NCBI GenBank assembly: GCA_963704165.1
Contig: CAVPHD010000001.1
Span: forward strand, 512,001 to 576,000
Source of the DNA: an uncultured delta proteobacterium
GTDB lineage: Bacteria > Myxococcota_A > UBA9160 > SZUA-336
Direction of reading: 5' to 3'
Length of the DNA stretch: 64,000 bases
Shown here: positions 575-52,195 of the stretch, in pieces
Layout of the letters: each line of letters begins with the position of its first letter
Numbering within the stretch: the stretch's first letter is position 1
Made by a program: the position numbers and the translations under genes
Notes under the pieces: model-generated
What the model saw: the letters and a program-made list of their open reading frames with translations, nothing else
Told to the model about the DNA's origin: nothing
Database searches by the model: none

Positions 575-3322
575 TCAGCCGAGCAACGCGAGCGTGGTCT
601 CGCGGCGGCGTCCCGTCCGTTCCTCGTCGGATTCGAGTTCACGCCGCTCGTCGGGCTCGATCGCGAAGACCCGCTCGCCCTTTTTCACGATGCTGCCGTC
701 CCGACCCGCCATCAGGTTCCTCGTGACGGTGCCCGGGTACGGCGCTGCGACCTTGTTGAACATCTTCATGACCTCGATCACGAAGAGCGGCTGTCCGGCT
801 TCGAAGTGCTGGCCTTCCTCGATCAACGGAGGCAGGTGCGGAGCCTCGCGCGAGTAGAACGTGCCGCCCATCGGCGTGACGATCTCGTCGAAGGCGGCGG
901 GCGGAGGAGGCGCGAGAGCACGCGCGAGCTCGGATGCCCGCGATTCGTCGAGGAAACGCTCCGGAAACACGATCGTCAGGTCGTCATCGACGTGGATGTC
1001 GAGGAAGCCCGTGCGTGCACCCAGACGCGGGATCACGAGCAGAAGCTCGAGGCCCAGCTGAAAACCCCGGTGCGCCGCCACGCAGCGAGACCAGAGCGCG
1101 TCGTCTCCGCCGCAGAGCGCGGCGAGTGGCTCGCCGGCGAAGAGTTTCTCGAGCGCGCCCGCGTCCTTCGCGCCGGTCGCCGCTTCGACCGCGGCGTAGA
1201 AGGCGCGCGCGGAGTCGAGGACCGCCGCATCGTGCTGCCAGATCTGCTCGGCGGGCGGCTTGTCGGCGCGCGCTTCGAGATCGAGGAAGTGATGGAGGCG
1301 CTCGAGAAAATCGATCGGGTTGGCCTCGAACGACACCTTCGTACCATCGGTCTTCCAGAGCTCACCGTCGTAGCGGCCGAGGAATCCCCCGATCAGGTGC
1401 GCGTTCGCGAACAGCCGCGCGAGCGGACGGAGCAGCAGGGTCTCCTTCGCCTCGAGCGCCGCGCGCGCGGCGGCATCGGACGTGCGCCCGACGAGCTGCG
1501 AAAAGGCGAACTCGAAGTCGATGCTGCTCGCGGTCTGCTCCAGCGCCCCGACCGCGCCGAGATACGACGTCATGAAGCGCGTGTTCGGCTCGGCCATGAC
1601 GCCGTGTCCGAGGAACCATTGGATCAGCCCGTAGTGGACCTCGCGGTTCGTCTGCAGATCGTCGCCCCGCAGCTCCATCCGCCGCAGGATCTCGGCCATG
1701 CGCTCGTAGTTCTCGAGTCGTGATTCCCCGTGTGTGAGAACCAGCGCGATGTTCGAGTCGTAGGCGCCGGCGACGTTGTAGTAGACGAACGAATTCGTGT
1801 CGGGATTGCGGATTCCGATGCCCTGATCGAAGCGCACCTCGTCGGGAAGTGGCCCCGACCAGCTGCGGATCAGTCCGCCGGCGTGGGGCTGGAGCGCGCG
1901 ATTGGTCGCGTTGACCCGCACTTCGACCGCGGAGAGATTCCGCGCCACGCGCTCCGGCTTCGGCACGCGCTTCCCATGCGCGGCGAGCAACGCCATCGCC
2001 TCGATCAGGCGCTCGACGTAGAAGTGCTCGCCTGGCTCGTCGGGGTTCGCGAAGCGCAGGCGATAGGCGAGCTCGGTCACGACGTGCTCGACCTGGATTC
2101 GCGTGTTCATCTCCATGAAGAAGAAGTCGAAGCCGTCGACGATGCACTCGAACGTGGACACGGAGTCGAGTCCGGTCGCCGAACCGAACCGTTCGCTCTC
2201 GGCTTCCATTCGCGCCAGATAGCCGCGGTCGCCGATCAAAACCTCACGCGTCGCTCCGCTCGCACACTCGATCTCGGCGTCGAGCAGCTCCACGGTGAGC
2301 GAGACTTCGATGAGCTTCTGCTCGTGCATCTGCACGGAGCAGTCCCGTCCGCCGAGCGAGATGCACCAGTCACCGTTGCCGATCAGCTGGATCTCGTTGT
2401 GGCGCGTGCGCTCGATGTTCAGCTCGACCAGGAAGTTCCGGTTCGAGCCTGGCTCGACGACCTTGGACTCGGCGCAGACGTCCATGACGGCGGCGGCGAT
2501 CTCCTCGGGTTTCGAGACGACGCGCTGTCCCTTCCCGCCACCACCTCCGATGTACTTGAAGCGGATGCGATGCGTCGGATAGTCGCGCCAGATTCCGGCA
2601 CAGACGCGCTCGGCTTCCCGCTGCAGATCCGCGATCCCGACGAGATCGACGCCCGCCGCGTAGCCCGCCTGCAGCAGCGCCTCCGCATTCAGCTCGAGCG
2701 AATCCTTGCCGCTCCAGGTGAACACGAGACCGGCATCCTTCGCCCGCTTCTCGAGGCCCTTCCGGTCCTTCGCGAGCTCGAGCAGCGCGCGCGTGCTGAC
2801 GTCGTCCACGCCGGGAATCACGGCGTTGCCGAGTCCACGGGCGAGCTTCTTCGCCTCGTCCTTCGCGCCGGCGCGTCGGAGCACGTGCGACGACGGACCC
2901 ATGAAGCCGATCCCGGCGCGCTCGATCGCCTCGACGAGGTCCGCGTCCTCCGCCATGAATCCATAGCCGGCGAAGACGTGCGTGTAGCCGTGCTCGAGCG
3001 CGATCGCGACGATCTCGCGGATCCGCGCCTGTTTCTGCTGCTGACCCGATCCCGTGTAGTCCTGCACGCGATGCACGTTCTGCGGGAAGCGGAACGAGCG
3101 CAGCTCCGGTGCGAGACAACGCGGGTAGACCACGGAGTCCTTCTCCGAGAGCAGCATTCCGTACTCGCGCACGCCGATCTCGTCGAAGACCTGGAAGGCC
3201 TCGAGCCTCACCGGGCCCCGGCAGACCACGAGCACCTTCAGCGCATCGAGAGCGAACGAGCGCAGCCACGGGCTCTCGCATTCGCCGAAGCGCCGCGGCA
3301 CGAGGTCGCGATCGAGCATCAC
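575..3322 (-). CDS. Acyl-CoA carboxylase, biotin carboxylase fused to BCCP (915 aa)
   Basis: [33 protein letters not shown] and YDSNIA biotin carboxylase motifs; C-terminal biotinylation motif EVMKM. Confidence 0.9.
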
Positions 3323-23934: not shown

Positions 23935-25050
23935 ATGATCCGGAACCTGGGGCTGGCGCTGCTGTCGGTCATCGTCGCCCTCGCGTTCTGTGAGGCGATG
24001 CTGCGCCTGTTCGGCGCCGACGTTCTGCCCAAGCCGGACCTGTACGTCCTGGACCCGGACGTCGGCAAGCGGATGCGGCCCGGATGGGAAGGCGACGAGT
24101 TCAAGGCGCCGGTCAAGATCAACTCCAAGGGCCTGCGAAATCCGGAAACGCCCTACGAGAAACCCGAAGGCGTGTACCGCGTCCTCGCGCTCGGCGATTC
24201 CTGGACGTTCGGATTTCGTCTCGACGAGCCCGATTGCTACCCGCGACAGCTCGAGCGCATCCTCGCCGAGCGCGCGTCGCTGCGCGGCGATCCGAGACGC
24301 TTCGAGGTGATCAACGCCGGCGTGATCGGTTACTCGACCGACCAGGAGGCCGCCTGGTTGCGGGTCGAAGGCTGGAAGTACCAGCCGGATCTGGTGCTGG
24401 TGAACTACTACCCGGTCAACGACACGCACAACAAGCTCGCCTCCTACCGGCGTCGCGCGCAGCTTCGCGACATCCATCCCTGGCTTCTCGAGCTCGTCGA
24501 AGCGCCGAAGCGGCTGTACCTGCGCCAGTTCTGGAAAGGCGCGAAGCGGACGCTGCAGTACAAGCTCCGCGTCGCCCGAGCGGACGGTGACCCGAAGGCC
24601 GGAGCCGAGGATTGGACGACCGCCTATCGGGAGGGCCGGAAGGGCTGGGAGGCGGTGCGAACGGCGCTCGCCGAGATCGGTGGCGAGGCGCGCCCGCGTC
24701 AGGTGCCGGTCCTGGCCGTCCTGCTTCCCGACGCCCAGAACCTCGAGCGCTACTCCGCCAGCTACCACCCGAAGGTCGCGCCGATGATCGAGGGCGCCGT
24801 GGCCGATGCCGGTCTGGACTTCTTCGACCTCGAGCCGACGTTCGCGCCGTGGGCCGCCAGGGAGGACGAGGTGCGCTTCGGCGTGCTCCGCCACCCGAAC
24901 GCGAAGGGCTACGGAATCATCGCGGAAGCGGTCGCGGACGAGCTCGGGCGGCGCTATCTGGGCTGGGCGCAGCCGCCGAGGGCGTTGGTGGAGATGAGCG
25001 GGATCGAACCGCCGACCTCTGCGTTGCGAACGCAGCGCTCTCCCAGCTGA
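23935..25050 (+). CDS. SGNH/GDSL hydrolase with N-terminal membrane anchor
   Basis: LGDSWTFG, NAGVIGY, ND and HPNAKG blocks. The 3' end overlaps the tRNA-Ala gene antisense. Confidence 0.8.
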   Translation: MIRNLGLALLSVIVALAFCEAMLRLFGADVLPKPDLYVLDPDVGKRMRPGWEGDEFKAPVKINSKGLRNPETPYEKPEGVYRVLALGDSWTFGFRLDEPDCYPRQLERILAERASLRGDPRRFEVINAGVIGYSTDQEAAWLRVEGWKYQPDLVLVNYYPVNDTHNKLASYRRRAQLRDIHPWLLELVEAPKRLYLRQFWKGAKRTLQYKLRVARADGDPKAGAEDWTTAYREGRKGWEAVRTALAEIGGEARPRQVPVLAVLLPDAQNLERYSASYHPKVAPMIEGAVADAGLDFFDLEPTFAPWAAREDEVRFGVLRHPNAKGYGIIAEAVADELGRRYLGWAQPPRALVEMSGIEPPTSALRTQRSPS

Positions 25051-25061
25051 GCTACATCCCC
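24986..25061 (-). tRNA. tRNA-Ala(CGC)
   Basis: GGGGATGTAGCTCAGCTGGGAGAGCGCTGCGTTCGCAACGCAGAGGTCGGCGGTTCGATCCCGCTCATCTCCACCA; 76-nt cloverleaf, G3:U70, anticodon CGC, encoded CCA. Confidence 0.97.
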
Positions 25062-41258: not shown

Positions 41259-44037
<2,779 letters not shown>

Positions 44038-46347: not shown

Positions 46348-47359
46348 CTAGCTCTGGCGGCCGACGACGAAGTCCGCGAGCGCGAGCATCGCGTGCTTCG
46401 CCTCGCAATCCACGAACGGTTCGATCTGCGAGCGCGCCTGGCTGCCGAGCTGCTCCGCACGGGCGAGCGCGCTCTCGACGCCACGGTGCCGGGCCACGCA
46501 CTCGGCCACGCGTTGCACGCTCTCGCGGTCCGGGCTGCGCCCGGCGGCGCTCTGCAGCGCGAACTCCTTCAAGAGGGCCGAGATCGCATCGCGCTCCCCT
46601 GTGCTGCAGCGCTTCAGGGTCGCGATCAACGGCAGCGTGAGCTTTCCCTCCGCCACGTCGGTGAGTGGCGCCTTGCCGAGGTCCCGCTCCGTGCCGGCGT
46701 AGTCGAGCGCGTCATCGACGAGCTGGAAGGCGAGGCCGAGGAGCCAGCCGTACTCGCGAACGGCGCGCCGCTCGGAACGAGTCACGCCACCGAGGATCGC
46801 ACCCGCCTCGGCCGCGGCGGCGAGCAGGCTCGACGTCTTTCCGCCGATCACTTCTAGGTAGGTCGGTCTCGTTCATCTCGGGATCGAAGCTGCGCGTCAG
46901 CTGAAGGACCTCGCCCTCGGCCATCGCGCGGATGCTCTCGGCGAAGGCCGCGAGAATGTCGGGGTCCCCGTCCTCGACGAGCGTCTGACAGGTTCGCGCG
47001 TAGAGGAAGTCGCCGACGAGGATCGCGAGCTTGCTGCCGAAGTGCGCGTTCACGCTCGGACGCCCGCGCCGGGTCTCCGCGCCGTCGACGACGTCGTCGT
47101 GCAGGAGCGACGCGCTGTGCAGGTACTCGGCCGCGGCCGCGATCTGGATCGCGCGCGGACCGCGATAGCCGCAGAGTCGAGCGGCGAGCAGAACCATGAC
47201 GGGCCGGACGCGTTTGCCGCCGCTTCCGAACGTGTGCTCGCCGATCGTCGGAATCACCGGCGCGACGGAGCGCATGCCGGCACGCATGACGCGCTCGACC
47301 TGATCGAGGTCGTCGCGCAGGAAGCTGATGATGCGGTCGAGATCGGGGGCGGCTGTCAA
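46348..47359 (-). CDS. ispB: Polyprenyl diphosphate synthase (frameshift near 46855)
   Basis: GGKRVRP, LLHDDVVD...RRG, FQLVDDALD, EGKLTLP. Confidence 0.88.
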
Positions 47360-47460: not shown

Positions 47461-47468
47461 GAAGTTCT
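47461..47468. repeat. Left target-site duplication GAAGTTCT (partner at 51033-51040)
   Basis: Identical 8-mer directly outside both TIRs. Confidence 0.85.
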
Positions 47469-47522
47469 CGGAATTAGGTACTTGACGCAACAGTCTCCGC
47501 CTGACCCTAGACTAGGCGCAGT

Positions 47523-47828
47523 TCATTGAGACGGTGTGACCTTGGACCTCCGCAGCGTCGGCCAGTCGGAGAACCCAAGTGCCCAGCGAGCCGCGAAGAT
47601 GCAGCCGGCGATTGGAGCCCACTTCCCGGCGTGGAAAACGATCACCAGCCTGAGCATTCGGAGTGCGGGGCTCGCGGCCTCGACCCCGACGGGAGCGAAC
47701 AGGGAGTCGCCCCCGCTCAACACTCGAACGACCGAATCGAGCGACTTGAACATCTGCCAGGACCAATACGCCGACCAAACAGCGATCGCGAGCCGACACG
47801 CAAAGCCGAACCAGTTCTCCCGTTTCAC
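47523..47828 (-). CDS. Hypothetical small membrane protein (IS cargo)
   Basis: 101-aa ORF with Trp-rich hydrophobic segments, co-oriented with the other cargo genes. Confidence 0.4.
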   Translation of the reverse strand: MKRENWFGFACRLAIAVWSAYWSWQMFKSLDSVVRVLSGGDSLFAPVGVEAASPALRMLRLVIVFHAGKWAPIAGCIFAARWALGFSDWPTLRRSKVTPSQ

Positions 47829-47844: not shown

Positions 47845-48012
47845 TCAGCGCCGAACCGCTTTGCGCCGTGTTCTCTTCTTCTTCGGCCGCTCCGGCCATC
47901 CGCCCTCGGGCTTTCGCTTGGAGACCGCTCCTTTCAGCGCATCCTCCCAGGTTCCTGGCAGATGTAGCGCTCTAGCGTCTGGCCCGGTGTTCTTGGTCTT
48001 CCGATTTGCCAC
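47845..48012 (-). CDS. Small basic protein (55 aa, IS cargo)
   Basis: GTG start 10 bp after the NYN stop: MANRKTKNTGPDARALHLPGTWEDALKGAVSKRKPEGGWPERPKKKR... Confidence 0.5.
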   Translation of the reverse strand: MANRKTKNTGPDARALHLPGTWEDALKGAVSKRKPEGGWPERPKKKRTRRKAVRR

Positions 48013-48022
48013 GGGTGAAACT

Positions 48023-48673
48023 CTAAGAGCCTGCCGGCGGCAAGTATTTCTGGGGGCAGCGGGCAACCACGATTCCCGTCGAGTCCTTGACCTCTAGGGG
48101 AAAGAGGCTCTTGCGCAGGTGTTTCGGCTCGATACTGCGAAGGCTCGGATATCCACCGAATGCGTGCACGATCTCCTTGCTGTGCCGCCGCTTCGGTGGC
48201 GCAACGAGCCGAAGGGGCTTCGTGGGGAACTGCGTTCTGAGCATTCGCACAACAGGCGCCAGATCGGAGTCTGCCGAGAGAAGAAGTCCCATATCGTACG
48301 AGTTCTTGTACGCCTCGTTCAGCATGAAGAGGCCGATGTTCACGTCCGTCTCCTTTTCCTCGTGCGCGATCCACTTCCCGCCGCACTTCTTGCAACTGCG
48401 GTCCTTCGGCTTAAAGAACCCCATGACCGGCGTCACCCCCACGCCTTCCAGTGCAGCAACGTATTCGCGGTGGCGTGCATATGCATCTGGAAGCCATGTG
48501 GCGTACGCAGAGAAGTAGTAGATCTCGCGCAACTCTTGGTATGGCTTGGGAACAAAGAGCTGCAGGAGCGCCCTTAGGTTCAACCACTTGAAGTGGTTCT
48601 GTCCAATGTCATCAAGCGCATGGTAGATGTTGAACCCATCGACAAAGGCCGCGACTCGTTGTGTCCGTACCAT
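48023..48673 (-). CDS. NYN (LabA/DUF88, PIN-like) ribonuclease with a CxxC insert
   Basis: FVDGFN, EKETDVNI and LSADSDLAP acidic catalytic motifs; CKKC; GAGGG RBS before ATG 48673. Confidence 0.88.
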   Translation of the reverse strand: MVRTQRVAAFVDGFNIYHALDDIGQNHFKWLNLRALLQLFVPKPYQELREIYYFSAYATWLPDAYARHREYVAALEGVGVTPVMGFFKPKDRSCKKCGGKWIAHEEKETDVNIGLFMLNEAYKNSYDMGLLLSADSDLAPVVRMLRTQFPTKPLRLVAPPKRRHSKEIVHAFGGYPSLRSIEPKHLRKSLFPLEVKDSTGIVVARCPQKYLPPAGS

Positions 48674-48758: not shown

Positions 48759-48786
48759 GCCCATGGGCTTCGGCCCATGGGCTTTT
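48759..48786 (+). terminator. 10-bp hairpin with cUUCGg loop and U tract
   Basis: GCCCATGGGC-TTCG-GCCCATGGGC-TTTT. Confidence 0.55.
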
Positions 48787-48806
48787 CTACATCAGATACG
48801 CGAAAA

Positions 48807-48876
48807 TGCTGGAGCCGGAGGGGATCAAACCCTCGCGCCCAAGTTCCAAGCCCGGACGCAGTACCAACTCGGCCCC
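48807..48876 (-). ncRNA. tRNA-like RNA (Ala-type acceptor, UGG anticodon loop, no D stem)
   Basis: GGGGCCG-AGTTGGTACT-GCGTCCGGG-CTTGGAA-CTTGGGCGC-GAGGG-TTTGATC-CCCTC-CGGCTCC-A-GCA; acceptor, anticodon and T stems all pair. Confidence 0.65.
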
Positions 48877-48988
48877 GAAGGGATCGCTCACCATGGCCCG
48901 CCCCAAGCCGTCCCAACGCGCTTGGAGGCGGGCCTTCTGGTTACGGCCACCAACTCCGGTGAACAGGAGAGCGGTGGCTAAACGGTCC

Positions 48989-49720
48989 TCATGATTCCTC
49001 CAGCGGCAGGGTCGCTAGAAACTTCGCCAACCGGTCTACGTCGGCGGCTGTCAGATCCATAGGCAGCGCGAGCTTGATAGGCATGTCCCGACGAAGTTGG
49101 AACGGATGGACCATGAACCCAGAAGGGGTGTCAATTACTGGTGTGCGGTGAACGTCATCGTTCGGCGTACCCTGATCGCGCTGTCCGGATCCGCGTTTCT
49201 TGCTTGGCTTCCGCGAGCTCCGGGACTGAGCCGATTGCTGTCTACTAGCTCCACCTGCACCACGGCGGGGCTCGAAGTGGGGCGATATAGTCAGCTTCGC
49301 TTCCTGCATCGCGGAAAGGTAGAATCGCACTGCTTTATCGAGGACTTGGTTCTCTGCCTTGCCTCGTGTTCGGAATGCTTCCTTGAGCTGCGCGATGGTG
49401 CCAGAGTCGAGATCCACTCCTGCGAGAATCTCGCCGTACGCCTCTGAGATTGCGTTTCCTAGCGCCTCCGGCCACGTCGATGTACCATGGGCCTTCACGA
49501 CGGCCCGAAGCCGATCGGTAACAATTCCGGGGCCTTGGATCATCCCGAGAAAACGGAGAGCAACGCGCAGATGGCTTTGGGTTGCGCCGGACATGCTGGT
49601 CATCAGGCTCGCGTCGATCGCCGGGGGAAGGGCGGTTTTGCTCAGCTTTCCGATGAAGCCCAGGAAGGTCTGGAAGGGTACGTAGGGCGGTCGAGCCGTT
49701 TCTTCTTTGCTCATCATCAA
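48989..49720 (-). CDS. DUF5343-like protein (IS cargo)
   Basis: PPYVPFQTF...PPAIDASL...ALRFLGMI N-terminal pattern, basic low-complexity linker, short C-terminal domain (LPMDLTAADVDRL). Confidence 0.7.
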   Translation of the reverse strand: MMMSKEETARPPYVPFQTFLGFIGKLSKTALPPAIDASLMTSMSGATQSHLRVALRFLGMIQGPGIVTDRLRAVVKAHGTSTWPEALGNAISEAYGEILAGVDLDSGTIAQLKEAFRTRGKAENQVLDKAVRFYLSAMQEAKLTISPHFEPRRGAGGASRQQSAQSRSSRKPSKKRGSGQRDQGTPNDDVHRTPVIDTPSGFMVHPFQLRRDMPIKLALPMDLTAADVDRLAKFLATLPLEES

Positions 49721-49746: not shown

Positions 49747-50028
49747 ATGGAACAGACAAGTCGAGTCGTGTCAACCCCAGCGGAGTACGTCACGGATGCA
49801 GTGACGGCGCTCGTGCGGGCGTATGGCGATGAGGCGGTAGAGCTGCGGGCCTTCCGTACCGCTGCGGACCGCGTAGCAGTTGTCGGTCCTGATGGAACTA
49901 CGACCGGATATCCGATCTGCTTCGTGTACGAGTGGGATGCCCAGCTGTTCGAGCGCCTGAGTGCTGCATACGGCGCAGCCGATTGCGCGCAGCTCGAACG
50001 GCTGTGGACCCTCGCGAAGCCCTTCTAG
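49747..50028 (+). CDS. Hypothetical protein (93 aa, IS cargo, convergent with the transposase)
   Basis: GGAG RBS, protein-like composition; stop overlaps the transposase stop. Confidence 0.5.
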   Translation: MEQTSRVVSTPAEYVTDAVTALVRAYGDEAVELRAFRTAADRVAVVGPDGTTTGYPICFVYEWDAQLFERLSAAYGAADCAQLERLWTLAKPF

Positions 50029-50984
50029 TACGAATCGCGCATCAAGCGCTTGCCATCGCCATTCCGAATCGCCAGCACCGTTCGATCGCCGTCGTCCATC
50101 TTGCGAGCGTTGTAGCGGAACTCGAACTCTGCCACGTAGCGATGCAGGTGCTTCGGCGAGACGTGGTGGAACGTTCCGTAGATCCCTCGCTTCAGCAGCG
50201 AGAAGAAGCCCTCGACGGTGTTGGTCGTTACGTCGCCGCGGGCGTACTCGTAGAGGCTGTGCTTCACCGCGTGATGGCCTCCCGCGAAGTGCTTGTTGAG
50301 CCCGCGATATGGATGCGCCTCGTCGGTCATGATGCGCGCGCTAGGGTCAACGTGCTGGCGGACCTTGGCCTTCAGGTTCTGACCCGGACCCTTCGGGACG
50401 TGTGAAGCGCGTGCATTGCCACCGCGCTCGACCATCGCGAACACGGTCTCCTTGGGCGTGCGCTTGTTCTTGCCGTGGAGGCGCTGGTTGCGCATTCGAG
50501 TCCGGCCACCGACGTAGGTCTCATCAACCTCGACGGTGCCCTGGAGCTGCGGTGGCGTGGAGTGGTCTTCGGCCATCGCGAACCGGATGCGGTGCATCAT
50601 GAAGAGCGCGCTCTTGTATGTGAGCCCGGTCTCCCGCTTGATCTGGAGCGCCGAGACGCCTTTCTTCGACGAGCACGCGCGCCAGAAGGCATGGCACCAG
50701 ATGCGCATCGGGATCGGGCTGTCCTCGAAGATCGTACCGACCCGGACGGTGAACTGGCGCTTGCAGCCCTTGCAGCGCCACAGGAAACGCTTGCTGCGCT
50801 CGCCGGTGGTGCGATCCTTCATCGCGTACACGTTCACGTCACCACAGCGCGGGCAGGCGGGCTCGCCGCCCCACCGCTGGGCTTCTATGAACTCGACCGC
50901 AACGCTTTCGTCGCGACACGCCTCTGGGAGTTGGGCGATGATCGAGTCCTTGTCCTGCCCGACCTTGCGTTGTCGTTGTGCCAT
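50025..50984 (-). CDS. IS1595-family transposase
   Basis: N-terminal zinc ribbon (CPRC...CKGC), HTH (GVSALQIKRE), VEVDETYVGG, IMTDE, NTVEGFFSLLKR, HLHRYVAEFEFRYN. Confidence 0.95.
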   Translation of the reverse strand: MAQRQRKVGQDKDSIIAQLPEACRDESVAVEFIEAQRWGGEPACPRCGDVNVYAMKDRTTGERSKRFLWRCKGCKRQFTVRVGTIFEDSPIPMRIWCHAFWRACSSKKGVSALQIKRETGLTYKSALFMMHRIRFAMAEDHSTPPQLQGTVEVDETYVGGRTRMRNQRLHGKNKRTPKETVFAMVERGGNARASHVPKGPGQNLKAKVRQHVDPSARIMTDEAHPYRGLNKHFAGGHHAVKHSLYEYARGDVTTNTVEGFFSLLKRGIYGTFHHVSPKHLHRYVAEFEFRYNARKMDDGDRTVLAIRNGDGKRLMRDSY

Positions 50985-50990
50985 GCCCGT

Positions 50991-51019
50991 AGACTAGAGG
51001 AATCAACGGTTTGCGTCAA
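50991..51019 (-). promoter_or_regulatory. Sigma70-type transposase promoter overlapping the right TIR
   Basis: Minus strand TTGACG-N17-TAGTCT, then 6 nt to the ATG. Confidence 0.7.
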
Positions 51020-52195
51020 GTATCTAATTGCCGAAGTTCTCGGCTCGACGCCGAGCTCGCGATCGAGCTCGGCACCCTGCGCGAGAGGAGCCTGTACAGG
51101 CGTCTCCGGCGCATCGAGGGACGACAGGCGCCGCGCATGCGCGTCGACGGCCGCGAGTGCACGATGCTCGCCGGATCGAACTACCTCGACCTCGCGGGTG
51201 ACGCGCGCGTGATTGCCGCCGCGCAGAGCGCAGCGGACGAGTACGGCACCGCCGCGGCGGGATCGCGGCTGATCAACGGAAACCTCGCGCTCCACGAGGA
51301 GCTCGAGGCCGATCTCGCGCGCTTCACCGGCCACGAGGCCGCGCTCGTCTTCAGCAGCGGGTACATGGCGAATCTCGGGGTGCTCGGCGCGCTCTGTGGA
51401 CCCGACGACGTGATCGTCTCGGACTCGTTGAACCACGCGAGCATCATCGACGCCTGCAGACTCTCGCGCGCACAGACGCGCGTGTTCCGCCACAACGACC
51501 CCGCGGATCTCGCGCGTGTCGCCGCGGAGCTCGCCGGCTACCGGCGTCGGGTGCTGGTCGTCGATGGCGTCTACAGCATGGATGGCGACAGGTCGCGGCT
51601 CTCCGAGCTCGTGCCGATCGCGCGAGCTCACGAGATGATCGTCGTGCTCGACGACGCGCACGGTCTCGGCGTGCTCGGCGCGACGGGCCGCGGCGTATCC
51701 GAGGCCGAAGGCGTCGCGGTCGACCTCTCGATCGGGAATCTCGGCAAGGCACTCGGCAGCTTCGGCGCGTTCGTCGCCTGCTCGGCGCGCGTGCGCGAGT
51801 ACCTGGTGAACACCTCGCGCAGCTTCATCTTCACCTGTGCGGTCGCGCCGCCCGCGCTCGGCGCGGCACGCGAGGCGCTGCGGATCGCGCAAGGGGAACC
51901 GGAACGCCGAAAGCTCCTGCTCGAGCGCGCGGAGCAGCTCCGCGTCGGCCTGCGTACGGCCGGCTACGACACGGGCGCGAGCACGACGCAGATCGTTCCG
52001 GCGATCGTCGGCGAGAACGACGCGGTAATGCGACTGACCGAAGCCGCGCTCGAGCGCGGCGTCTACGCGCAGGGCATCCGCCACCCGTCCGTGCCGCACG
52101 GCACGGCCCGGATCCGCTTCACGCCCACCTGCGCGCACACGGCCTCGGACATTGTCCGGGTGGTCGAGATCTTCGCGGAGCTTCGCGACTCGTGA
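51011..52195 (+). CDS. bioF: 8-amino-7-oxononanoate synthase (5' end interrupted by the IS)
   Basis: GSNYL, GSRLING, SGYMAN, NHASIID, YSMDGD, DDAHG, LGKALG. Confidence 0.92.
   Translation: MRQVSNCRSSRLDAELAIELGTLRERSLYRRLRRIEGRQAPRMRVDGRECTMLAGSNYLDLAGDARVIAAAQSAADEYGTAAAGSRLINGNLALHEELEADLARFTGHEAALVFSSGYMANLGVLGALCGPDDVIVSDSLNHASIIDACRLSRAQTRVFRHNDPADLARVAAELAGYRRRVLVVDGVYSMDGDRSRLSELVPIARAHEMIVVLDDAHGLGVLGATGRGVSEAEGVAVDLSIGNLGKALGSFGAFVACSARVREYLVNTSRSFIFTCAVAPPALGAAREALRIAQGEPERRKLLLERAEQLRVGLRTAGYDTGASTTQIVPAIVGENDAVMRLTEAALERGVYAQGIRHPSVPHGTARIRFTPTCAHTASDIVRVVEIFAELRDS

Follow-up and report, generated by a model that had tools for sequence, protein, structure and literature searches.

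In a 64,000-nucleotide stretch of DNA from an uncultured delta proteobacterium (contig CAVPHD010000001.1, positions 512,001 to 576,000; the window), a 3.56-kb IS1595-family transposon carries, on the minus strand at 48810-48876, a 67-nucleotide element that folds as a truncated tRNA. This tRNA-like fold is real. It is shared by a family of 12 distinct loci and one distant member, and its stems covary across that family. The carriers are four genomes within a single Myxococcota class, contigs from metagenomes and one complete phage genome. The reading favoured here, tentatively, is that the element may be an intercistronic, processed tRNA-alanine mimic in a conserved family carried by IS1595 transposons, other mobile islands and phage.

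The element is composed of the following parts.

48810-48876, minus strand: tRNA-alanine-like element, 67 nucleotides through the discriminator base A73 (from sequence, fold, Rfam tRNA, family model R2 and covariation)
48870-48876 with 48811-48817, minus strand: acceptor stem, 7 bp with G3:U70, followed by A73
48860-48869, minus strand: mini D stem-loop, a 10-nucleotide segment in which positions 8-10 pair with 15-17 (3 bp, loop UGGU)
48851-48859 with 48835-48843, minus strand: anticodon stem, 9 bp
48844-48850, minus strand: anticodon loop CUUGGAA, 7 nucleotides
48830-48834 with 48818-48822, minus strand: T stem, 5 bp
48823-48829, minus strand: T loop UUUGAUC

This cloverleaf is the minimum-free-energy fold of the sequence (-34.7 kcal/mol, z = -2.1; 4 of 200 shuffles are equally stable). 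An initial annotation of 48807-48876 had described most of it, and the acceptor stem, G3:U70, A73, the 9-bp anticodon stem, the T arm and the encoded GCA in place of CCA after A73 (48807-48809) all stand as described. Its stemless D loop does not: the 3-bp mini stem closed by UGGU is retained in relatives by paired changes. Across the family the D arm has only this 3-bp stem and a loop of 4-6 nucleotides, with the UGG of the loop kept; a canonical arm has a stem of 3-4 bp and a loop of 8-11 nucleotides with G18 and G19. The anticodon loop fits the canonical 7-nucleotide form (U33, purine 37) on a stem of 9 bp instead of 5, and the T loop has U54, R57 and A58 together with U56.

Existing tRNA detection yields little. 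Among the checks that had been proposed initially, ARAGORN makes no call at the element, its sole call in the window being a genuine tRNA-Ala(CGC) at 24986-25061, and the Rfam tRNA model (RF00005) gives 24.5 bits, under its cut-off of 29 (E = 0.008 for a 501-base search); a scan of the whole window at the gathering score does not list the element. Taken alone, the Rfam match is no more than suggestive; the family of relatives with covarying stems is what raises the element above chance.

The acceptor stem resembles that of alanine tRNA. Acceptor pairs 1-5, G3:U70 among them, and A73 are those of the host's own tRNA-Ala genes, and G3:U70, A73, G1:C72, G2:C71 and G4:C69 are identity elements for alanyl-tRNA synthetase (AlaRS). 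Of tRNA-Pro, the element has the anticodon UGG, but its first pair is G1:C72 and its position 37 is A; host tRNA-Pro genes begin with C and place G just before A73. The proposal of an alanine-type acceptor combined with a UGG loop on a genuine tRNA mimic is borne out by sequence, fold and covarying relatives. A coding frame across the element was rejected: a 4-base insertion or deletion between the window and G010, a genome of the same genus, shifts the one frame that runs through the element, so the element is non-coding.

Relatives and covariation of the tRNA-like fold

Among 151 genomes of the class, family model R1 recovers true members in four: G000, the window's own genome; G010; G056; and G100. 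The remaining R1 matches that ARAGORN resolved are real tRNA-Ala genes and one transfer-messenger RNA (tmRNA). In 151 genomes drawn from across the phylum, model R2 finds a member in the window's genome only, where the element scores 81.5 bits, and real tRNA-Ala genes there score at most 46; the next-best matches of the family models are real tRNA-Ala genes at 36-46 bits. A pattern that fixed the acceptor stem and, in the T arm, some positions including three T-stem pairs returned 14 metagenome loci and one viral contig. Two of the metagenome loci (L037 and L041) repeat, within the element, members already known, and were dropped; scored with R2, the remaining 12 divide into eight members (64.7-80.6 bits), one real tRNA (45.2 bits) and three chance matches (17-20 bits). 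One divergent member is located in a complete phage genome. The distant thirteenth member (L149, a viral contig, 2575-2642, plus strand) reaches 36.8 bits with R2; this look-alike lacks a D arm, has acceptor pair 6 swapped and the loop CUCCUAA, and keeps G3:U70 and A73.

Other searches bear on how visible the family is. At the Rfam tRNA cut-off the element goes undetected in all 11 member-holding loci scanned, and the sole family copy called by ARAGORN is that of G056, as tRNA-Stop(UUA). Plasmid and phage records searched by BLASTN contained no match to the element, and an exact 21-base pattern from the hairpin upstream of the element found nothing in metagenomes. A look-up of sequencing runs for this DNA listed none. 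The first exact tRNA-like pattern matched G010 alone among species genomes; exact patterns are insensitive at 85% identity.

Two members have unusual surroundings. In L040, a metagenome contig of 52% GC with host-like neighbours, the member and a regular tRNA-Ile(UAU) (Rfam 77 bits) form a cluster on the minus strand (2912-2983 and 3001-3069), separated by 17 bases. In L036, a 34-base, 74%-complementary inverted copy of the anticodon-arm region (2236-2269 versus 2460-2493) sits 190 bases downstream within the small-protein region, and could have arisen by chance.

Covariation was assessed in a MAFFT alignment of 11 distinct family sequences. Pairing is intact in 93.2% of paired cells, as compared to 77.2 ± 1.8% in shuffles, none of 500 of which matches the observed value, and to 37-58% in slid controls. 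Covariation, the absence of which had been named beforehand as a sign against the RNA, is found at half the fold: 12 of 24 pairs change on both sides. RNAalifold independently gives the same three-arm fold, minus one often-mismatched pair, and one anticodon-stem pair is unpaired in 5 of the 11 members. G-U makes up 38 of the 264 paired cells, which confines the fold to one strand, the one that is also sense for the adjacent genes. Between the window and G010 copies, paired changes occur in three stems and one pair becomes A-A. An alternative four-arm fold of the G010 copy was discarded, since the window copy cannot form it.

Conservation is strong in the alanine-like part. The acceptor stem and A73 are identical in 11 of 11 sequences, including four recovered without fixing them; the five AlaRS identity elements are present in all 11 and in L149; and the 7/5 acceptor/T-stem design is found in every member. 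The family likewise conserves T-loop bases U54 and A58 and the UGG within the mini D loop.

These observations bear directly on a further proposal, that the element no longer has a function and is a tRNA pseudogene in decay or what remains of an attachment site. Decay would account for a score below the Rfam tRNA cut-off, for the missing CCA and for the drift-like variation of T-loop positions 55 and 56 among close relatives. It would not account for stems that covary around a fixed acceptor stem and loop, nor for one truncated design at 12 loci with unrelated flanks. An attachment-site remnant would be expected to resemble a host tRNA; the longest match between the element and any of 54 host tRNA/tmRNA calls is 9 bases. 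The element is, moreover, a whole molecule and not a 3' half, no integrase gene is adjacent among the open reading frames (ORFs) scanned with Pfam, and none is found among the transposon's genes. A decayed tRNA or ssrA fragment, which the initial annotation had held open, is thus very unlikely.

Conservation extends to the anticodon loop, which takes the following forms.

YUUGGAM: 7 of 12 loci
GUUUACA: 1 of 12 loci
GUUUGCA: 1 of 12 loci
CUUGACA: 1 of 12 loci
9-nucleotide loop sharing CGCUAGA: 2 of 12 loci

If the loop is read by the ribosome, the element could be a decoding tRNA of dual identity: charged with alanine through G3:U70, reading CCA/CCG through UGG, and giving mistranslation or stop suppression, with other members reading UAA, CAA/CAG or UCA/UCG. 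Consistent with this proposal, the loop is a canonical 7-nucleotide loop with U33 and U34 at 10 of 12 loci (8 of 11 aligned sequences), and in the six UGG-loop members it is far better conserved than the anticodon stem (88% versus 51% identity). Position 37 cuts both ways: it is A in the UGG members, as suits a purine-37 loop, and C in others, and tRNA-Pro carries G37. Features of the molecule's body also speak against decoding. A 3-bp D arm and a 9-bp anticodon stem, often internally mismatched (5 of 11 at one pair), would set the anticodon at another distance from the acceptor end than in a ribosomal tRNA; the T loop departs from the norm at positions 55 and 56; and two members have 9-nucleotide loops.

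Precedents for such a decoding role exist on both sides. In excerpts of the report on tRNAProX of Streptomyces, a natural tRNA joins two identities (PMC10404621), and part of Mukai et al. describes irregular, suppressor-like tRNAs near toxin-antitoxin genes (PMC5389517); an irregular 89-nucleotide tRNA-Pro(UGG) lies in a like context in the genome G012. The same portion of Mukai et al. has six allo-tRNA-UAU variants that were tried in E. coli and were non-decoding (PMC5389517). Taken in aggregate, decoding by the element is distinctly unlikely.

Replacement of the ordinary proline tRNA was considered separately and rejected. A canonical tRNA-Pro(UGG) was not found in the window's genome (84% complete; ARAGORN and BLAST), whereas same-genus genomes have one; most probably the gene falls in the portion that the assembly lacks. 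Because G010 possesses a normal tRNA-Pro(UGG) alongside the element, the element is no substitute for that tRNA; the retained tRNA also speaks against the dual-identity proposal.

The carrier transposon and the NYN gene

The initial description of the element as transposon-borne is correct: there is an IS1595 transposase with 19-bp inverted repeats, and both ends are flanked by a direct repeat of 8-9 bp, the duplicated target. The transposon stretch has a GC content of 59-63%, as compared to 65-74% in the rest of the window. Read along the minus strand, the order is transposase, 243-amino-acid gene, hairpin, element, palindromic hairpin, NYN gene, 55-amino-acid basic protein and 101-amino-acid frame.

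51011-51029, strand not assigned: left inverted repeat, 19 bp, 95% complementary to the right repeat; target duplication at about 51033-51041
50025-50984, minus strand: IS1595-family transposase, 319 amino acids (Pfam DDE_Tnp_IS1595 5e-43, Zn_ribbon_IS1595 2e-11)
48989-49720, minus strand: 243-amino-acid gene directly upstream of the element (weak DUF5343, Pfam E = 0.014; weak PADLOC candidate PDC-M34A, 2e-4)
48804-48942, minus strand: 139-bp block holding hairpin and element (BLASTN and alignments against G010)
48895-48934, minus strand: upstream hairpin, 8 + 6 bp with one bulged base, then the spacer AUGGUGA
48759-48782, strand not assigned: perfect 10-bp palindromic hairpin where the NYN insert begins, terminator-like on the plus strand only (T run after it)
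48023-48673, minus strand: NYN-domain gene, 216 amino acids (Pfam 1.1e-9; PADLOC single-gene defence candidate HEC-09, 8e-51)
47845-48012, minus strand: small basic protein gene, 55 amino acids, GTG start (profile match 4.9e-15)
47523-47828, minus strand: putative last cargo reading frame, 101 amino acids, hydrophobic, no family match
47472-47490, strand not assigned: right inverted repeat, 19 bp; target duplication at about 47461-47469

The element is not a general part of IS1595 elements, as it occurs only in the window and G010 among 28 IS1595 transposase loci of the class examined with 1.5-kb flanks (a count that omits L076, the second piece of G010's split transposase). Elsewhere in the window, an enolase-like gene (42186-43211) and a polyprenyl-synthase-like gene (46348-47359, minus strand) are each split over two frames, reflecting either frameshifts or assembly errors.

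G010 carries a transposon at the same chromosomal site, with flanks 87% and 84% identical and the same ends. From the transposase side as far as the right inverted repeat, the 139-bp block is all that the two transposons have in common (84.9% identity), and homology ends exactly at both of its edges. The upstream hairpin within the block is 100% identical in G010, and L033 has a homologous hairpin with a paired change. The G010 cargo keeps the element and has a phosphoribosyltransferase gene in place of NYN. Similarity of the window to the G010 spacer ends about 12 bases past A73 and resumes just ahead of the small-gene start codon, from which the NYN gene is read as a later, lineage-specific insertion. 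It appears to have been inserted between the element and the small basic-protein gene.

Such breaks raise the possibility that the element acts at the level of DNA, as a tRNA-shaped landmark where cassettes or insertion sequences land and cargo is swapped with no functional RNA. The exact edges of the block shared with G010 fit this view, and insertions lie a short way downstream of the element at several loci: the NYN cassette about 12 bases after A73 in the window; in L035, an IS3-type element that cuts the small gene; in G056, an IS1-like transposase some 200 bases on; and in L045, an IS1595 end at most about 92 bases away. Another IS1595 end lies 100 bases after the irregular tRNA-Pro of G012. 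Mobile islands, however, are rich in insertion sequences regardless, and a mere landing site needs neither strand-specific G-U covariation nor a conserved loop or an invariant alanine-type acceptor. No integrase or recombinase gene lies beside members among the ORFs scanned with Pfam, and a repeat of the element's 3' part was not seen by eye at the far end of the NYN insert. A landmark of this kind is unlikely.

The NYN ribonuclease had been proposed as the functional partner of the element, which would then be its RNA antitoxin, decoy or substrate. The window itself suggests this arrangement, with NYN starting 134 bases downstream on the same strand, but NYN adjoins the element at 1 of the 12 family loci and is absent from the DNA examined at the other 11. 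NYN homologues are common (1688 matches). Six further NYN loci in 401 genomes of the phylum hold no family member. A viral search with a single NYN query gave no relative; an alignment query gave 54 loci, of which one (L149) has the distant alanine-type look-alike, 457 bases downstream of the NYN homologue and about 30-90 bases ahead of a reading frame without a family match. At the shared site, G010 keeps the element without NYN, and in the window NYN separates the element from the small gene that adjoins it elsewhere.

G012 offers a further case. There, an IS1595 element carries only a transposase and an NYN/HEC-09 gene between its ends, leaving NYN with no such RNA inside the transposon. 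On contig 2 (L049, 713-801, minus strand), 100 bases upstream of the IS1595 end, lies the irregular 89-nucleotide tRNA-Pro(UGG), which the transposon thus abuts. This tRNA has a long variable arm, the loop UCUGGAA, C1:G72 and A73, scores 49.7 bits with Rfam tRNA, follows a 177-amino-acid gene and stands beside a small-protein homologue. At six other places in G012 (L109-L114), 45-50-base copies of the 3' part of tRNA-Pro(UGG) that neither ARAGORN nor Rfam calls were rejected as tRNA-like genes; they look like attachment-site remnants of integrated elements. Taken together, NYN and odd tRNAs co-occur more than once and neither requires the other: 11 of 12 member loci are without NYN, and 58 of 61 NYN loci examined are without any irregular tRNA. 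A dedicated pairing of the element with NYN is extremely unlikely.

Neighbouring genes and proposed processing as a tRNA-alanine mimic

The element is co-oriented with the downstream gene at every locus where one is seen. In G010, G100, L033, L036 and L044, that gene encodes a conserved small basic protein and starts 23-27 bases past A73; in L035 it is interrupted by the IS3-type element. Members of the small protein family are about 45-65 amino acids long and rich in lysine and proline, and their conserved core ends in GWP. A large protein collection contains 66 homologues, all with only 'hypothetical' names and no Pfam family, and no relative was found in viral contigs.

The upstream genes are more varied. 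A DUF5343-like protein precedes the element in the window and in G056 (homologues at 30% identity, BLASTP 1e-13). In L036 the upstream gene is an HTH-peptidase M78 protein, the RosmerTA antitoxin RmrA (PADLOC 5e-111), with its stop codon 11 bases before the element, and in L035 a gene with the same Pfam domains stops about 20 bases before it. G100 has a DinD-like gene (PADLOC PDC-S13, 5e-94) with its stop codon 12 bases before the element, and L033 a weak HARE-HTH protein. An IS1595 transposase lies within the fetched DNA at 5 of 12 loci (window, G010, L033, L036 and L045), and the family's neighbours are mostly candidate anti-phage genes. The G056 member (L030, 3161-5493) adjoins an IS1-like transposase, a cytosine methyltransferase, a GIY-YIG protein and, by eye, a Vsr-like frame; these surroundings look like a restriction-modification-type island.

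As the gaps that separate the element from its neighbours at several loci are too short for a promoter, the element is most likely part of a polycistronic transcript from which it would be excised like a tRNA. Some real tRNA genes are co-transcribed with protein genes and freed when RNase P splits the transcript, as ahead of tufB and nusA-infB in E. coli. The element likewise sits among genes of one orientation, too close to them to have a promoter of its own; the E. coli examples differ in being normal, decoding tRNAs of the host chromosome.

The top half of the molecule (acceptor stem, T arm and a probable elbow between the mini-D-loop UGG and the T loop) is a close copy of tRNA-Ala, and this is the part of a tRNA recognised by RNase P, by the enzymes that mature the 3' end, by the CCA-adding enzyme, and by AlaRS and EF-Tu. 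If the element is transcribed as RNA within the cargo operon and recognised by the cell's tRNA enzymes, as predicted, the reaction would involve: cleavage of the 5' end by RNase P; cleavage after A73 by a 3' nuclease; and addition of CCA. Excision would split the cargo transcript, setting the upstream message apart from the downstream small gene, which would gain a defined, short leader. It would also release a stable alanine-type RNA of 67-70 nucleotides, probably a substrate of AlaRS. In the window this coupling would be broken by the NYN cassette about 12 bases past A73, and the element would precede NYN by accident of insertion.

Several points weigh against processing as the whole explanation. 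The small gene is not adjacent in 5 of 12 members and occurs without the element in G012. The invariance of the acceptor stem in metagenome members was imposed by the search pattern, leaving the four genome members and distant L149 as the only members free of that bias. With few members, related to one another, covariation counts exaggerate the number of independent events, and shuffles exaggerate significance. Real tRNAs keep U55 and C56 in the T loop; here C replaces U55 in 5 of 11 members, and the window copy has U instead of C56. A processing signal alone, finally, needs no conserved anticodon loop. Processing leaves that constraint unexplained, which keeps both the dual-identity proposal and a role as decoy alive.

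The decoy proposal holds that the element is a non-decoding decoy or sensor in phage-bacterium conflict: a bait or sponge for an anticodon nuclease, a tRNA-modifying or repair enzyme or, in the manner of a tmRNA-like inhibitor, SmpB, or else a nuclease-resistant stand-in tRNA. The conserved loop is consistent with recognition by a partner, although no one protein partner is conserved across the family. The neighbours RmrA, PDC-S13, HEC-09 and, weakly, PDC-M34A are defence or candidate-defence proteins, and a divergent member resides in a complete phage genome. For SmpB in particular, the place that it occupies on tmRNA is taken here by the anticodon arm. Part of the report on mycobacteriophage DS6A describes a molecule with little beyond the tRNA-like domain of tmRNA, and a similar molecule that inhibits tmRNA, perhaps through SmpB titration (PMC4131195). 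A decoy or sensor is possible, if doubtful.

Relation to known systems and meaning

As compared to bacterial tRNA-Ala and its minihelix, the element has the same first five acceptor pairs, G3:U70, A73, 7/5 stems and T-loop U54 and A58. It differs in its 3-bp D arm with a 4-6-nucleotide loop, 9-bp anticodon stem, UGG anticodon, unencoded CCA and score under the Rfam tRNA cut-off.

In the allo-tRNAs of soil bacteria, the D arm is normal and the variable arm long; the element family has no variable arm and a truncated D arm. In Mukai et al. 2017, allo-tRNAs have 8/4 or 9/3 acceptor/T stems (PMC5389517), in contrast to the 7/5 of the family. As described in sections of two papers, these tRNAs, found also in irregular polycistrons, include some with G3:U70 and anticodons mismatched to their identity; their genes lie near toxin-antitoxin and transposon-related genes, and several are non-decoding in E. 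coli (PMC5389517, PMC7609411).

The tRNA-like domain of tmRNA and the DS6A 'TLD only' (tRNA-like domain) molecule, in the account excerpted from Hudson et al. 2014, share an alanine-type acceptor, a T arm and no regular D stem, and the latter is, like the element, carried by a mobile element or phage (PMC4131195). Model R1 also matched a tmRNA gene. The element differs in having a full anticodon arm, no tag reading frame and no pseudoknots; it scores 16.1 bits with Rfam permuted tmRNA (cut-off 47), and ARAGORN calls no tmRNA there. The tRNAProX genes of Streptomyces and Kitasatospora likewise combine an acceptor identity and an anticodon of different amino acids, and the source, in part, presents them as full-size proline tRNAs with Asn/Thr anticodons, next to a special prolyl-tRNA synthetase and shown to decode (PMC10404621). 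Here, a predicted alanine identity is joined to a proline anticodon on a truncated body with no synthetase gene nearby.

The element belongs among irregular tRNA-shaped genes on mobile DNA and lacks the defining features of each closest published system. In the open-licence literature searched, no account of the element family or of its link to IS1595 cargo turned up, and nothing was found on DUF5343 or on tRNA-like elements with IS1595; the initial statement that no system of this type had been described agrees with these searches. A bolder synthesis would make the element a purpose-built mini-tRNA on defence-cargo transposons and phages: alanine-loaded, with a Pro (or stop, Gln or Ser) anticodon, acting with the small basic protein as a switchable mistranslator or as bait for an anticodon-specific enzyme. 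This is unlikely.

Only a few reports deal with irregular tRNA-shaped genes on mobile DNA, and for none of these genes is the function established. The present family is small, clearly delimited and easily tested, with a very strongly constrained alanine-type top half, a constrained anticodon loop and a fixed operon place amid otherwise anti-phage cargo. It indicates that tRNA finders and Rfam overlook a class of tRNA mimics, and that IS1595 cargo transposons hold a conserved non-coding module. Processing and charging, if they occur, would make the element a natural RNA akin to an alanine minihelix that acts beyond normal decoding; decoding would make it a transposon-borne mistranslation device; and a purpose-built mini-tRNA would add a new class of RNA component to the conflict systems of mobile elements.

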